Assembly: GCA_944338265.1 (NCBI GenBank)
Contig: CALVLO010000001.1
Span: forward strand, 1-30,204
Direction of reading: 5' to 3'
Origin: an uncultured Clostridia bacterium
GTDB taxonomy: Bacteria > Bacillota > Clostridia > Christensenellales > Borkfalkiaceae
Length of the DNA stretch: 30,204 bases
The notes beneath the pieces were generated by a model, which made no database searches, had not been told where the DNA came from, and saw nothing but the letters and a program-made list of their open reading frames with translations. Positions 1-5,207 of this stretch are shown here, in pieces; position 1 is the first letter of the stretch, and each line of letters starts with the position of its first letter. The position numbers were made by a program, and so were the translations under genes.

Positions 1-1
1 T

Positions 2-73
2 TTTGAGAAAGTCGTTGTCCACGCAATATTCAAAAAACTGTCCGAGCAAAAACTTCGATTTCTTGACGGTCGC
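2..73 (-). pseudogene. Internal fragment of a phage/ICE-type tyrosine integrase, open to the window edge
   Basis: Manual translation ATVKKSKFLLGQFFEYCVDNDFLK resembles the last helix of the core-binding (SAM-like) domain of tRNA-targeting integrases. In-frame stop at 95-97 upstream and no RBS. Confidence 0.6.
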
Positions 74-266
74 CAATTGCCTGTATTCGTAAGTTTACAG
101 TTTTGGGCTTGTAGGTTTCAATCAAATATCCCTTGAACGCCAATAGGTTCTGTTTTGTGATTTCTCCCGATAATTGCTGATACATTCGTATCGTAAGTAG
201 GTACGATGAAATCGTGTTTTCAGACAAATTGCTCCGCCGAAGGTGTGCTTCAAATTCTTCTAACAT
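30..266 (-). pseudogene. Truncated XerC/D-like tyrosine recombinase (N-terminal SAM-like domain only), of the type found in type I R-M loci
   Basis: LSENTISSY...LLAFKGYLIETYKPKTVNLRIQAI N-terminal motifs and RBS AGGAGG. Similarity stops at about position 75; no catalytic domain. Confidence 0.75.
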
Positions 267-309
267 AGGTAATCCTCCTAAAAAAAGTAGTATATAAATT
301 TTACTCTTT

Positions 310-777
310 TTAGAGAAAAACCTCGACTATGTATCCTTTTCCATTATTGATTTCATTTTGATAACGAGCCAAAAGCTCCTCAGGTGATGGAAAATCATCT
401 AAACCTATTTCTCGTTCGATCCCTGTAATAAAATCATACTCTTGAAAAGCATCGCCGTTGGAACTATATGCGAACGGAACATCGAGCATTTGAGCATAGA
501 GTTTGGCTTGTTGCATACCAAACGAAACGCCGTGATTGTTATCTTTGGCTTCAACAACAGCGAGAGGGTTGTTTTTGCTTAAATAAAGTATGTAATCGGC
601 TTTTTTTGGAGCTTCGCGGCTGACCAGATTCCCGCGTAAATTCACCTTGCCGTCTGTAAATTTGACCTTCGTTTCCATTGTAATTTTATCCTGCCAGCCC
701 TTTTCTAAAATTGCTGGAGTAATAAAATTTAATTTTATATCTTCTTCAGTCATTTGTTTTTTATCAATAATGCTCAT
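310..777 (-). pseudogene. hsdR: Truncated type I restriction subunit R (EcoAI/EcoEI-like), N-terminal nuclease domain only
   Basis: MTEEDIKLNFITPAI...KKADYILY...LAVVEAK...QQAKLYAQMLDVPFAYSSNG is the HsdR_N signature. 155 aa with no DEAD helicase domain. RBS TAGGAG at 784-789. Confidence 0.85.
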
Positions 778-796
778 AGTTCGCTCCTATGTTCCT

Positions 797-805
797 ATTA
801 TACCA
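797..805 (-). promoter_or_regulatory. Extended -10 promoter for hsdR fragment
   Basis: TGGTATAAT on the minus strand just upstream of the RBS; no clear -35. Confidence 0.5.
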
Positions 806-839
806 TATTATCGGAAGTTGAAGGATAAAATTAGCGCGT

Positions 840-1454
840 TTAATCCCTGCTTATAATATTTGCTAAACTCAAACTCCAAACGCCTTGAGTTCCCCTAAAA
901 TCATCATTAAAATATTTTGCAGTTCCATTTTTTAAATCTTTGTCAAACCTAATGATGGCAAAACCGTGGTGGATTCCCATTGTGCCTTCTTTTTTCTTTG
1001 GTTCATTTGTATAATTATAACTTAATTTTATTTCGTTTACACTGATAGACATAAATGTTTCGAAATTCTCTGATTGTGAATTATCAAACAACCCTTTAAT
1101 TGATATTTTATTAAAAGTCTGGTATATTTTTATCAGTCCATTATATGTATATCCCAGGGAATTTTCACCTTTTATATTCCAAATACCATTTAAATTTGGT
1201 AAATTTAAAAGCTTCATGAATACTTTTGTTTTCCATAATTTTGTATCAAACACCCATTTGAGAAAAGCATCTATTCCGCCAAGGCTAGGAAGAATAAGGA
1301 TATTTAAATAAATTATCCATACATTTGTTACCGCTATATCGCTTACAAGAATATTAAAGGTTATCATTATAAATGATGCAAATATAAGACTAAAAATAAA
1401 AATCAAACGATTTACTTTATCTCGAATATTGTTGTCAATAGCGTAATTTTTCAT
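840..1454 (-). CDS. cap15: CBASS effector, Cap15-like (2 TM + beta-barrel, SMODS-associating 2TM-beta)
   Basis: Two N-terminal hydrophobic helices; PNLNGIW, IYQTF..ISI, YNYTNEP and HHGFA..motifs. ATGA overlap with the upstream CD-NTase. Confidence 0.85.
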   Translation of the reverse strand: MKNYAIDNNIRDKVNRLIFIFSLIFASFIMITFNILVSDIAVTNVWIIYLNILILPSLGGIDAFLKWVFDTKLWKTKVFMKLLNLPNLNGIWNIKGENSLGYTYNGLIKIYQTFNKISIKGLFDNSQSENFETFMSISVNEIKLSYNYTNEPKKKEGTMGIHHGFAIIRFDKDLKNGTAKYFNDDFRGTQGVWSLSLANIISRD

Positions 1455-2377
1455 ATGTTGTATTTCCCAGCTAATACATTTTTTAGGATACCAATAAAAA
1501 ATATAGCATCGTTTTTATTCCACTGTGTGCTACGAGAACCAAATAATCGCCATTGTTTATGCTGACATTGAAAATTATCCAATGGTGTCATCAATAAAAA
1601 ATCGATTATATTATTAAGAGTTTTTAAACAAGATGTTTCAAAACAACGGCTTGGCACATTATAAATCAAATTTTCAATAAAATATGAGCTTGCAAGATTT
1701 TCACTTATAATATTTTTATCGACCAATAATGATTTAATTTTTTTTATGAACCTAACGGTCATTTTATAATTTCCATCTGTTGTCTTATTTTTATTATGTC
1801 CGTTTTCAATATGTTGCTTAGGGAAATTTACAATAATATCGTCTGTTTCAGTATTATCAAACGATATGCCAGCATCGAAATGGCTTGTACTATCTGGATT
1901 TTGTAACGAGAATGAACGGTACTTTTTATATAAAAAACAAGGAACAACATCAACTTCGATCGATGGATTTTGTAATATTATTTTAAGTGATTTAGGCTTA
2001 TAAAAAACTGATTTAACTCTTGTATAATGAGAAATAGCAGTTAATAGTTCATGATATATTGTATTTTTATATTGCTTAAAACTCAAGTTCGCTTTCTCAT
2101 AATATTTGTTTCTCTCTATTTTTGCGTAATCTGTTAGAGCACTATCGTCATATCGAAAAACTCCGTTATACTGAAAAACAATATCAACATCGGAATCGCG
2201 TTTAATATTTGTTGCATTTGCATAAGAGCCTTGTAAATAAGCTTCAAAATCATTATGGTGCGCAACAACAATAGGTAACCTAAACAGAGTTTCTTTTACG
2301 AAATGATACGCATTGGAACTTAAGTCTGTACTTTCTTGAATTGACCATTGTAATAATTTTTCTTCAGTTATAAACAT
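1451..2377 (-). CDS. cdnE: CBASS CD-NTase, CdnE-like (clade E)
   Basis: LQGSYANATNIKRDSDVDIV (GS...DxD), EVDVVP third acidic residue, NFPKQHIENG, YKMTVR, SYFIENLIYNVP. Confidence 0.9.
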   Translation of the reverse strand: MFITEEKLLQWSIQESTDLSSNAYHFVKETLFRLPIVVAHHNDFEAYLQGSYANATNIKRDSDVDIVFQYNGVFRYDDSALTDYAKIERNKYYEKANLSFKQYKNTIYHELLTAISHYTRVKSVFYKPKSLKIILQNPSIEVDVVPCFLYKKYRSFSLQNPDSTSHFDAGISFDNTETDDIIVNFPKQHIENGHNKNKTTDGNYKMTVRFIKKIKSLLVDKNIISENLASSYFIENLIYNVPSRCFETSCLKTLNNIIDFLLMTPLDNFQCQHKQWRLFGSRSTQWNKNDAIFFIGILKNVLAGKYNI

Positions 2378-2408
2378 TATTTGCTTTCCTTTTTAGATTT
2401 TTTCTATC

Positions 2409-3275
2409 TTACATTGCATTCAAATTTTTCGTAATTTCTGTAAAGAACTCTGTGCTCCAAATATTCAACTTGGTTTTGTCTTTAATAAAGGGAATTACGT
2501 CTTGTTTGGCTTGTTCATAGTCGATTTCTGCAAAGCGTTCGTTCAGCATGGAAATCAGGGTTTCGCGGGTAAGGTTGAAATCCTTGTCGATAAATCCGGA
2601 GTCTACAAGTCGTGCTTTCAGGTGTGGCATATTGACTGCAACGTTTCGAGAGAGATAGAAAATATAATCGTATAAGTCCCTGCCTTTGACACGGGTTTTC
2701 CATGCGCGGCAGATTACGGCGTGAAGTTTGCCCGCGAACAACGAAGGCATATCATACAGTTTCACTTGATAAGGCGACGGCAGCAGTCGGTACTTGTTTT
2801 CAAATGTCGCAAAGGCCGGAGGATTTGTATCGACTTCAAACTTGATTTTTATTACTTCAGACGGATTGATTTTCGTCGCACTCTGCTCGTCGTTGTAAAC
2901 GCTTAAAATGTGTTCCTTGGTGTTGCCTTTCAAAAAAGCCGATTTGACATTGGAGTCTGCTGTTTTGATTTTTTCTTCCACCTTGAAGTTCAGTCCGACG
3001 GCATGCAATTCGCTCTCTAAAACCGAAAAATATTTTTTCAATTCAAAACCGGAATCGGGCGCTACCAGCGAAAAGTCCAGGTCTTCGGAAAATCGGTCAA
3101 GTCCGTAAAAGATACGCAGCGCCGTACCGCCGTAAAACGCGGCGTCCTTAAAAAAGCCCGCTCGGGAAAGTCCGCATAGCGCGACTTCCTGTATTACTTC
3201 TGTCAGCGCGTTTTTTTCGTCGCTTTGCGACTGCGCGGGATATAGCGCAAGCATTTGGCTTAAAATTGTTTGCAT
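2409..3275 (-). CDS. abiEii: AbiEii-family nucleotidyltransferase toxin (type IV TA / abortive infection)
   Basis: FYGGTALRIFYGLDRFSEDLDF and KGRDLYD motifs intact; abuts the antitoxin gene. Confidence 0.9.
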   Translation of the reverse strand: MQTILSQMLALYPAQSQSDEKNALTEVIQEVALCGLSRAGFFKDAAFYGGTALRIFYGLDRFSEDLDFSLVAPDSGFELKKYFSVLESELHAVGLNFKVEEKIKTADSNVKSAFLKGNTKEHILSVYNDEQSATKINPSEVIKIKFEVDTNPPAFATFENKYRLLPSPYQVKLYDMPSLFAGKLHAVICRAWKTRVKGRDLYDYIFYLSRNVAVNMPHLKARLVDSGFIDKDFNLTRETLISMLNERFAEIDYEQAKQDVIPFIKDKTKLNIWSTEFFTEITKNLNAM

Positions 3276-3863
3276 TTATTTTCCTCCGTTAATCAGCTTT
3301 ACAAGATACTTGTGATTAGTCGATTTATAGAGCGGCGCTAGTTGTTTGATGTCGTCTAGATTTAACTGCCAAAAGTCGTTTTCATCGACGCGCAAATCTT
3401 CGAACAGTAACGCCCGCATTGCTTTGACCGAGCCGACGGGCGATATGGTGTACAGCTTGTCGCATAGCGCCTTTTCGGGAGTGGCGATCTGATAGGAATA
3501 ACCGTTTTCTTCCCGAATTTCCACGCCAAAATGATAAACTGCGGCAGGCACATCCCTGTATGTGAAGACTCCGAACGCGTTATTGTACTGCTTCGCTTTG
3601 CCTTTACGGAAGGTCGCGGAAGTGTAAGTCCGAAAAATCGCTTCGGGAATCAACGAACACATCGACAGTACATAATCGAAAGAAAGATAGGATGGGCCGT
3701 AGATTGTGCCCGCAAGATATTTGCCATCAGCACGCGCATCGGTTTCGTATAATCCGCGCGCGATTTGCGTTAATCGCCCCGATTGTACTTCGCGGCGAAT
3801 CTTCCCTTTTACATCGGTGTAATCTTTGAATTGTAATGCCAAACTGTCAAATGTTAAAACCAT
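3276..3863 (-). CDS. abiEi: AbiEi-family antitoxin / transcriptional regulator
   Basis: N-terminal wHTH (IARGLYET), PSYLSF..LS..SLIPE and ATPEKALCD motifs; RBS AGGAGA. Confidence 0.85.
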   Translation of the reverse strand: MVLTFDSLALQFKDYTDVKGKIRREVQSGRLTQIARGLYETDARADGKYLAGTIYGPSYLSFDYVLSMCSLIPEAIFRTYTSATFRKGKAKQYNNAFGVFTYRDVPAAVYHFGVEIREENGYSYQIATPEKALCDKLYTISPVGSVKAMRALLFEDLRVDENDFWQLNLDDIKQLAPLYKSTNHKYLVKLINGGK

Positions 3864-3883
3864 TGTTTTCTCCTGTTGGTTTT

Positions 3884-3912
3884 ATTATATCAAACTTTTC
3901 GGTGAAAATCAA
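3884..3912 (-). promoter_or_regulatory. sigma70/sigmaA promoter of abiEi-abiEii(-cdnE-cap15) with overlapping palindrome
   Basis: TTGATT (3912-3907), 17 bp, TGA-TATAAT (3889-3884). TTTTC-GGT-GAAAA palindrome at 3896-3908. Confidence 0.7.
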
Positions 3913-3990
3913 TATATTTTAGAAGATTCGATATAATTATTTCGTGAAAAAGTAAGGCTTAAGATAATACCGAGATATTGCCGTATTTAA

Positions 3991-4010
3991 ATCAGGTCAA
4001 ATTAGGTCAA
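3991..4010. repeat. 10-bp tandem repeat, candidate integrase arm site
   Basis: ATCAGGTCAA ATTAGGTCAA. Confidence 0.45.
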
Positions 4011-4120
4011 AAAATGCGATATTCTTTGTATTTGCTTTTTAAAATCACTCCGCAAGCCAGACCAAATAATACCCGTCAAAAACGCTATCAAACTGACCGA
4101 AACGATCTGAAAAATCTAAA

Positions 4121-4168
4121 ATGGTGGTAAATGGTAGTAAAAGCAGCAAAAAACCATTACTACCATTT
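4121..4168. repeat. 10-bp tandem repeat plus inverted copy, candidate integrase arm sites
   Basis: ATGGTGGTAA ATGGTAGTAA. AAATGGTAGTAA (4129-4140) is the exact reverse complement of 4157-4168. Confidence 0.55.
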
Positions 4169-4195
4169 TTCTTTAAATTGTATTAAAATAATAAG

Positions 4196-4250
4196 AAAAC
4201 GGCGGAAAAAGCACAAGATACTGTGTCTTTTCCGCCGTTTTTATTTTTTT
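4196..4250 (+). terminator. Intrinsic terminator-like hairpin at the island end
   Basis: Perfect 14-bp IR AAAACGGCGGAAAA (4196-4209) / TTTTCCGCCGTTTT (4228-4241) followed by a T-run. Confidence 0.6.
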
Positions 4251-4271
4251 AGAGCACTTCCTCTTTTTGCA

Positions 4272-4329
<58 letters not shown>

Positions 4330-4376
4330 AAAAAAGCGCCCTGATGCCGAGAAATACGGCTTTAGGGCGCTTTCTT
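4330..4376 (+). terminator. Terminator hairpin downstream of the tRNA fragment (also faces the convergent gene)
   Basis: AAGCGCCCT...GCCG-AGAAATA-CGGC...AGGGCGCTT stem. Confidence 0.65.
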
Positions 4377-4379
4377 ATC

Positions 4380-5207
4380 CTAAAATTTTCCCAATGCCCA
4401 GCCGAGCTTTCCTCCCGCAAGGAGATGCCGCTTCACGCTCCGCTGCAGCGAAGTTTGCTCGGGCAACGCTTCGTAGGCGACGGCGGGATCGGGATAGATC
4501 CATTCGAGAAACGCCGTGCTATCCTCCTCCGTGCGCAGAATGCGGAAGCGGCGCTGAAACTTTAAAATATTCGAGCTTGCGGGGAGCAATTCCCGCAGCG
4601 TGGGCACGAGCATCCAGGAATCACAATCCATTTCCGCCTGCGCAAAGGCGGGATAATATTCGGCAAAAAATCGCTTTGCAGCGGCAACGGAGTCCGTAAC
4701 GGAGCGCTCAGAAAGGTCGGCATCGAACGGGATATGCAGATAGATCTTTCTATCGCCGTCTTCTTCCGTCATCTCGTATTCAAGCGCGCCGAGGCGAAAT
4801 TCCCGCATGGAGAGCTGCCGCGGGAACCACCAGCCCCAACGGAAGGCGAGCGTGCCCCGCTTCCGCGCATCGTCTGCAAGAAAGCGGGAGAGAAACTTCA
4901 TTGTATCCCAATAGACCGCCTCGCCGATGCCCTTTGCGGCATAGTCCGCGTGCGTGCGCACCGCACAGCGGCAGAGGTAGACGAAAAGCTTCATGCCGTC
5001 CGCATCTGCGCCGAGCAGGGTGTGCGCCGCCTCGATCCCCTTCTCGTAAGCCTTCCCTTCAAACAGCGGCGCAAGCAGCGGCAGGGTGAGCACTTGGGGG
5101 AATTGGCGGATGACGCGCTCCGCGCCTCGCCGCCCCGCCTCGCTCAAACCGATCCCGCAAAAAAAGCGATCCAAGTTCTCTTCTTCCGATTTTCCGAAGA
5201 TCTCCAT
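4380..5207 (-). CDS. GNAT-like acyltransferase domain protein (DUF5596-like family)
   Basis: FRLGALEYEM, LHIP, CDSWML, SNILKFQRRF pattern. Own promoter TTGCTT (5259-5254), 17 bp, TATCAT (5236-5231). Confidence 0.6.
   Translation of the reverse strand: MEIFGKSEEENLDRFFCGIGLSEAGRRGAERVIRQFPQVLTLPLLAPLFEGKAYEKGIEAAHTLLGADADGMKLFVYLCRCAVRTHADYAAKGIGEAVYWDTMKFLSRFLADDARKRGTLAFRWGWWFPRQLSMREFRLGALEYEMTEEDGDRKIYLHIPFDADLSERSVTDSVAAAKRFFAEYYPAFAQAEMDCDSWMLVPTLRELLPASSNILKFQRRFRILRTEEDSTAFLEWIYPDPAVAYEALPEQTSLQRSVKRHLLAGGKLGWALGKF

Follow-up and report, generated by a model that had tools for sequence, protein, structure and literature searches.

A CdnE-Cap15 cassette directly behind an abiE toxin-antitoxin operon in a tRNA-Thr-borne defence island of an uncultured Clostridia bacterium

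We analysed a 30,204-nucleotide (nt) stretch of DNA from an uncultured Clostridia bacterium of the Borkfalkiaceae (GCA_944338265.1, contig CALVLO010000001.1), here called the window, which is one whole contig of a 163-contig, 74%-complete metagenome-assembled genome. In it, an abiE toxin-antitoxin (TA) operon is directly followed on the same strand by the cdnE-cap15 gene pair of a cyclic oligonucleotide-based antiphage signalling system (CBASS). Both halves belong to families already described, AbiE and type I CBASS (CdnE plus Cap15), and only their nesting at the level of the operon is unusual. We suggest that positions 1-4330 form the end of a tRNA-Thr-borne defence island whose backbone would be the abiE operon and then a type I restriction-modification (R-M) operon, and that the two-gene cassette inserted into the spacer of ~20 nt that separates the abiEii stop codon from the hsdR promoter. 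There, most cdnE-cap15 transcription would arise by read-through from the abiE promoter, which is conserved and probably repressed by AbiEi; AbiEi may impose a low basal level on CBASS as a side effect. The two systems would otherwise act independently, with AbiEii arresting growth once freed from AbiEi, and with a sensed infection leading CdnE to make a cyclic nucleotide upon which Cap15 would disrupt the membrane. Any coupling would thus be a by-product of where the cassette landed and not an evolved four-gene machine. Taken as a whole, with slot insertion, read-through mainly from the abiE promoter, and independent action, this explanation seems to us moderately probable on the sequence evidence.

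The minus strand between 840 and 3863 holds four open reading frames (ORFs) of 195, 288, 308, and 204 amino acids (aa) with gaps of 0, 31, and -4 nt, bearing out the gene order, strand, and spacing that a first-pass annotation had read from the same DNA:

3276..3863, minus strand: abiEi, predicted type IV antitoxin and autorepressor (195 aa; PADLOC AbiEi, 4.8e-59)
2409..3275, minus strand: abiEii, predicted DUF1814 nucleotidyltransferase toxin (288 aa; PADLOC, 4.2e-111; Pfam PF08843, 2.5e-29)
1451..2377, minus strand: cdnE, clade-E cGAS/DncV-like nucleotidyltransferase (308 aa; PADLOC cyclase, 5.1e-76)
840..1454, minus strand: cap15, effector with two transmembrane helices and a beta-barrel cyclic-dinucleotide receptor (204 aa; 4-nt overlap with cdnE)

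The PADLOC match of AbiEi spans residues 6-192 of 195, and Pfam AbiEi_4 covers the helix-turn-helix (HTH) helix only, at 18.3 bits and under the cut-off of 25. The motifs defined for Streptococcus agalactiae AbiEii are I (hGG/S), II (DhD), III (KLxAaxxR), and IV (D) (PMC3985639), and read against these definitions all four are intact in the AbiEii of the window (GG49-50, D65-L-D67, KLHAVICR, and GRDLYD). CdnE gave five sequence matches in PDB, all to CdnE enzymes, of which RmCdnE (6E0K) was best at 3.6e-38, followed in order by EmCdnE, EfCdnE, a cyclic dipyrimidine synthase, and ClCdnE; by these nearest solved structures, the cyclase belongs to clade E. The residues of its GS...DxD...D active site (G50, S51, D63, D65, and D143) are invariant in 16 homologues, so that with AbiEii motifs I-IV present the catalytic motifs are, as first reported, intact. 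Cap15 matches Pfam Cap15_CD_rec (PF18153, 1e-21) over residues 84-193 as well as the PADLOC 2TM effector (1.1e-37), and two hydrophobic helices can be read from the sequence of its N-terminus. By Pfam and PADLOC, there were no Cap2/Cap3 or HORMA/TRIP13 accessory genes among all ORFs of at least 50 aa in 1-4400, and no WYL repressor, HTH plus M78 peptidase pair, or kinase/STAS pair among the island ORFs, in agreement with the earlier remark that the described CBASS regulators CapW, CapH/CapP, and CapK/CapS are missing from the island.

Module borders and transcription of the cassette

The signals that frame the two modules are as follows:

3884..3912, minus strand: abiE promoter, with -35 TTGATT (3912-3907), 17-nt spacing, and extended -10 TGaTATAAT (3892-3884)
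3908-3896, minus strand: palindrome TTTTCACCGAAAA, candidate AbiEi operator, within the abiE promoter spacer
3940..3950, minus strand: second, weaker copy of the palindrome, TTTTCACGAAA, in the window and in contig L171, replaced in contig L091
2378..2408, minus strand: abiEii/cdnE junction of 31 nt, with the tail of the abiE module to ~2392 and the CBASS ribosome-binding site from ~2388
797..819, minus strand: hsdR promoter region, motif AACTTCCGATAATA and then TGgTATAAT, its promoter role read from sequence

The composition of the locus is mosaic, with a GC content of 46% in abiEi, 44% in abiEii, 29% in cdnE, and 28% in cap15 in a genome of 59%, and with a step from 45% to 28% at the abiEii/cdnE junction. 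Alignments by blastn break at the same place: abiE relatives align from the tRNA border to 2419 (L171, 87% identity) or 2392 (L199, 89%), and cdnE-cap15 relatives align from 2388 (L006) or 2382 (L007 and L009). Because this homology starts only 5-11 nt before the ATG at 2377, the CBASS cassette brought only its ribosome-binding site. The empty slot itself is represented by L200, where at the same tRNA-Thr site an 82%-identical abiEii is followed by ~20 nt, TCAACTTCCGATAATA, and then hsdR-hsdM. In the window, the TCAACTTCCGATAATA motif with TGgTATAAT stands 17 nt past the cap15 stop, ahead of hsdR, and because the hsdR motif follows cap15 here and abiEii in L200, CBASS lies in the small gap separating abiEii from the hsdR promoter. 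The 3' sequence of abiEii is common to the CBASS-less relatives L171, L173, and L199. The four genes also occur in a diverged copy of the locus, L091, at ~88% DNA identity and with the junction sequence of the window; there abiEii has lost its stop codon and reads on to overlap the cdnE start as TAATG, which makes the spacer entirely coding. Identity between the two copies at the junction equals the local average, and no abiE-specific adaptation is visible there.

The abiE promoter scored 10/12 in a promoter scan, with an extended -10 TG. Its core, TTGATTTTCnCCGAAAAGTTTGATATAAT...AGGAG, which extends to the Shine-Dalgarno sequence, hardly varies among L091, L171, L172, and L174, whereas the DNA upstream of it diverges; in alignment, this conservation reaches relatives at 74% DNA identity, and the palindrome TTTTCnCCGAAAA in the promoter spacer is kept in five relatives. 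AbiEi of S. agalactiae represses its own promoter via inverted repeats (PMC3985639; PMC7319586), and by analogy the TTTTCACCGAAAA palindrome is a natural candidate for the AbiEi operator. At the abiEii/cdnE junction there is no terminator-like hairpin (terminator scan; fold of 2340-2480, z = 0.23 vs shuffles), and the 300 nt before cdnE hold no promoter-like site of at least 9/12 in either the window or L091. Two further statements of the first-pass annotation, that no hairpin separates abiEii from cdnE and that the only clear promoter lies ahead of abiEi, are therefore upheld.

Between the window and L091, dN/dS (the ratio of nonsynonymous to synonymous substitution rates) is 0.036 for abiEi, 0.062 for abiEii, 0.096 for cdnE, and 0.31 for cap15, and all four genes are under purifying selection. 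With a cassette that brought no upstream region, an abiEii 3' end that recurs in CBASS-less relatives, and genes kept under selection in this arrangement, read-through is the most economical reading; L172 supports it further, because a passenger gene is accommodated within the abiE operon of that contig. We estimate that transcription reading through from the abiE promoter into CBASS is fairly likely, and both cotranscription of abiE with CBASS and its passive co-regulation by AbiEi are plausible.

Several observations weigh against this picture. Searches of sequencing runs found the sequence in none recorded as RNA, and in four possible chicken-gut RNA-Seq runs only 5-12% of its sequence words were present. 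The operator role of the palindrome in the abiE promoter rests on analogy with S. agalactiae. Synonymous divergence (dS) between the window and L091 is ~0.9 for abiE vs 0.25-0.40 for CBASS, values made unreliable here by AT bias, and the abiE of L171 is nearer to that of the window than the abiE of L091 is. Because the halves differ in dS and the L171 abiE is closer, the modules appear to have been reshuffled by recombination around a common junction, and selection on CBASS may partly have acted in other contexts. Lastly, the AT-rich DNA offers many weak promoter-like sites, with 21 in the region vs 15 +/- 4.2 in shuffles (not significantly above), and one 8/12 site, GTCAAA-18-TATATT, lies inside abiEii (~2690), ~313 nt upstream of cdnE, and is kept in L091. 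That site overlaps the conserved RDLYD coding motif.

We also considered whether dS (0.9 vs 0.3) records separate histories of the two halves; the difference is suggestive, but it is confounded by the strong AT bias, and in a sliding comparison of the window with L091 identity moves only from ~0.84 to ~0.90.

The weak sites bear on a second explanation, in which the mosaic is the same but CBASS is transcribed independently, from a weak or fortuitous promoter in the 3' part of abiEii or in the 31-nt spacer, and AbiEi has little influence on it. Such a promoter could be any of the many sigma-A-like sites, including that at ~2690; type I CBASS needs only low constitutive expression, and the adjacent hsdR appears to fit a promoter in a 62-nt spacer. 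However, no site upstream of cdnE reaches 9/12, the L091 spacer is wholly coding, and the abiEii 3' sequence, being present in L171, L173, and L199, did not evolve as a cdnE promoter. We regard independent transcription as possible, if on the unlikely side.

Recurrence and exchange of partners

We found the identical arrangement in five further contigs from separate samples, and the runs that contain it come from 9 studies; at the DNA level, 840-3912 had no match in plasmid and phage collections. Of the 115 distinct CdnE homologues for which upstream information was available, drawn from genome and metagenome scans, only those in the lineage of L001 and L091 have AbiEii upstream, and the abiE-CBASS pairing traces to one fusion event on this sequence comparison. 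The survey of abiE-cdnE-cap15 synteny proposed in the first-pass annotation thus came out close to a one-off, a single fusion, yet the fused form persists through ~12% nucleotide divergence. The nesting is a single-lineage event, in keeping with the tight packing and shuffling seen in defence islands generally. Among the closest cassettes, tabulated as those with CdnE 53-75% identical, the upstream genes are:

L006: PDC-S14 GIY-YIG/DUF4357 gene, gap 14 nt
L007: Phd-HipA-like pair, gap 39 nt
L008/L009: gene for a 69-aa HTH_26 protein, gap 3 nt
L013: gene for an SpbK-like TIR protein, after hsdS, gap 30 nt
L014: HerA gene, gap 233 nt
L092-L095: gene for a Schlafen/AlbA_2 protein, gap 48 nt
L012: divergent transposase gene, gap 151 nt

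This variety bears on a third explanation, advanced in the first-pass annotation, that selection has made the four genes a composite system in which AbiEi is the dedicated regulator of CBASS, and relief of AbiEi repression on infection would fire two abortive outputs together. The fused form has been kept and each of its genes is under purifying selection, a DNA-binding leader precedes some cassette relatives (the XRE-type HTH_26 protein at a 3-nt gap in L008/L009 and Phd-HipA in L007), and dedicated upstream repressors are known for CBASS in CapW, CapH/CapP, and CapK/CapS. Against this stand the single fusion event among the 115 homologues, the heterogeneous upstream partners within the close clade, several of them non-regulators (the PDC-S14 nuclease, SpbK TIR, HerA, and the transposase), the nearest abiE relatives (82-94% identical), which lack CBASS, and the absence of abiE-specific adaptation at a junction whose identity is the local average. 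With the pairing confined to one lineage, its partners swapped, and GC jumping between the halves, the proposal is not supported, and we consider a selected composite quite improbable.

Side by side with these comparisons, we noted that the gene for the 69-aa HTH_26 (Cro/C1-type) protein (L008:5788-5997; L009:27-236) ends 3 nt before cdnE in a 66%-identical cassette, with the cdnE ribosome-binding site inside the HTH_26 coding sequence; to judge from this layout, the protein is likely a dedicated small regulator in the L008/L009 lineage. A common small HTH leader across the wider CdnE family was rejected, as only 2 of 33 small upstream ORFs were recognisable HTH proteins (HTH_26 and HTH_17), and most of the remainder have no family and many are probably spurious. 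We likewise set aside the Phd-HipA pair of L007 as a form of CapK/CapS, as CapK is described as anti-sigma-kinase-like and not HipA-like.

From the side of abiE, partners are no more constant; more distant abiE pairs are mostly plain two-gene units, and the cargo of individual abiE relatives is as follows:

L171: two unknown genes, then hsdM
G234: hsdM directly, as hsdM-hsdS-(AbiJ_NTD3 kinase)-hsdR
L172: GmrSD/DUF262 gene between abiEi and abiEii
L173: DUF5677 genes
L174: Schlafen-like gene
L203: nothing

Three of these arrangements are of interest in themselves. In L171 (1943-3279), two overlapping genes (206 and 239 aa) fill the CBASS slot between a 94%-identical abiEii and hsdM; they have no PADLOC match and a sub-threshold match to Abi_2 only, making them a candidate uncharacterised defence pair. 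In L172 (2578-5870), a gene for a 607-aa GmrSD_N/DUF262 protein (PADLOC HEC-05, 7e-30) is nested in the abiE operon, overlapping abiEi by 4 nt and ending 12 nt before an abiEii whose product is 88% identical. In L196 (G234:C35, 4450-5751), a gene with AbiJ_NTD3 and protein-kinase domains lies between hsdS and hsdR of a type I R-M operon, which itself comes directly after a 93%-identical abiE pair.

The best reading of the locus on these comparisons is a defence island that exchanges cassettes in a slot between abiE and type I R-M. A bolder variant would make this abiE subfamily an autoregulated expression chassis for promoterless defence cassettes, the candidates being CBASS here, the GmrSD-like gene inside the operon in L172, and the unknown Abi_2-like pair in L171. 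If this were true, relief of AbiEi repression on infection would co-induce a second, unrelated abortive system; we think it doubtful.

An assembly chimera, in which the low-GC segment was misjoined to a genome of 59% GC or abiE to CBASS, is suggested by the position of the segment at a contig end in a fragmented assembly, by the sharp GC steps, and by the tRNA at the border, but is largely refuted and highly improbable given identical abiEii-cdnE junctions in five other contigs from separate samples, the diverged L091 with the same junction, a border tRNA that is a 3' fragment, as for an att remnant, and not a full gene, and contig L002, which covers the window from 23 to 4326 at 100% identity.

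Setting in the island

Around the four genes, we identified the following features:

310..777, minus strand: truncated hsdR, 155 of 787 aa, cut at ~codon 148
30..266, minus strand: N-terminal fragment of a tyrosine recombinase, 78 aa, Pfam Phage_int_SAM domains only
4272..4329, plus strand: 3' fragment of tRNA-Thr(GGT), 58 nt, island border (att remnant)
4184..4251, no strand assigned: long GC-rich palindrome AAAACGGCGGAAAAG...CTTTTTCCGCCGTTTT, between the tRNA fragment and the abiE promoter, flanked by A/T runs

The type I R-M set is incomplete in the window, where only the first 155 aa of hsdR remain (Pfam HSDR_N; PADLOC REase_I, 1.3e-47, positions 1-144 of an 807-position model). Contig L001, identical in other respects, has an intact hsdR (787 aa) together with hsdM, and identity between the two stops at window position 333; the deletion recurs in the independent contig L002. 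In L008, a gene beside cap15 encodes a 267-aa recombinase, and the recombinase fragment of the window matches its first part at 69% identity. The island is decaying in this genome, with the truncated hsdR joined to the recombinase fragment, and the early description of the neighbouring R-M and integrase genes as broken was accurate.

The AACTTCCGATAATA motif is common to the window, L006, L008, L009, and the empty-slot relative L200, and in several of these islands it precedes hsdR. L008 and L009 are identical up to ...CCGATAATA, after which a 267-aa tyrosine recombinase follows in L008 vs hsdR in L009. From its distribution, the AACTTCCGATAATA motif may mark a recombination point besides a promoter.

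At the other border, ARAGORN finds no tRNA in the window, and genomes of the same genus carry complete tRNA-Thr(GGT) genes whose 3' part is the same 58 nt. The fragment is also present in L091, L199, and L200, at the same tRNA site with differing flanks. The palindrome at 4184-4251, found as a self-match on the opposite strand, is probably a two-way terminator that would insulate the island from the host GNAT gene (4380-5207). No CBASS was found in 36 same-genus genomes searched, and one of them (G019) has a 75%-identical abiE in a different arrangement beside a complete tRNA-Thr.

How suicide-type defence is expressed safely and how island neighbours are co-regulated are only partly understood. 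The locus offers a clean natural case of a CBASS that lacks its own promoter region behind a probably autorepressed TA operon, with empty-slot and alternative-cargo relatives for comparison. If read-through is true, mobile defence cassettes can gain their regulation by operon hitchhiking; if it is false, the locus is one more tightly packed defence island.

Comparison with known systems

The abiE half resembles AbiE of S. agalactiae and lactococci (Dy et al. 2014, PMC3985639) in having the antitoxin first with abutting ORFs, a full-length AbiEi, a DUF1814 nucleotidyltransferase AbiEii with motifs I-IV, a sigma-A-type promoter with 17-nt spacing near the start codon, and a palindrome at the promoter that is, by analogy, consistent with antitoxin autorepression. 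Unlike the described operon, which is bicistronic, here two more defence genes follow without a terminator, and the abiE unit is probably not bicistronic; the relative L172 departs further, with a gene inserted between abiEi and abiEii.

The CBASS half shares with type I systems, such as staphylococcal CdnE-Cap15 (PMC10686824) and the CdnE structures 6E0K, 6E0M, and 7X4C, the two-gene cyclase-effector layout with overlapping ORFs, the GS...DxD...D site, a Cap15 with two transmembrane helices and a cyclic-dinucleotide receptor barrel, and the lack of Cap2, Cap3, and HORMA accessory genes. The staphylococcal system senses a phage RNA (PMC10686824). The CdnE of the locus is only distantly related to the solved enzymes (best E value 3.6e-38), and unlike such systems the cassette lacks an upstream region and probably lies within the transcription unit of another system.

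As in repressor-headed CBASS (CapW; CapH/CapP; CapK/CapS; PMC11662680, 10.1101/2022.04.27.489752, PMC13373217), the gene for a DNA-binding repressor comes first and could set expression. The locus differs from these in having no WYL, HTH plus M78 peptidase, or kinase/STAS genes, and in that AbiEi belongs to its own toxin partner, its link to CBASS is lineage-specific, and DNA-damage sensing is not implied.

Type I R-M loci can also host passenger defence genes, as in the prr locus of Escherichia coli, hsdM-hsdS-prrC-hsdR. The passenger here is a CBASS, unlike in such loci, and the R-M operon is truncated in this genome. The likeness lies in position: the cassette stands directly upstream of hsdR in the window and L001, in L006, and in L009, and in relatives SpbK follows hsdS (L013) or an AbiJ_NTD3-kinase gene separates hsdS from hsdR (G234).

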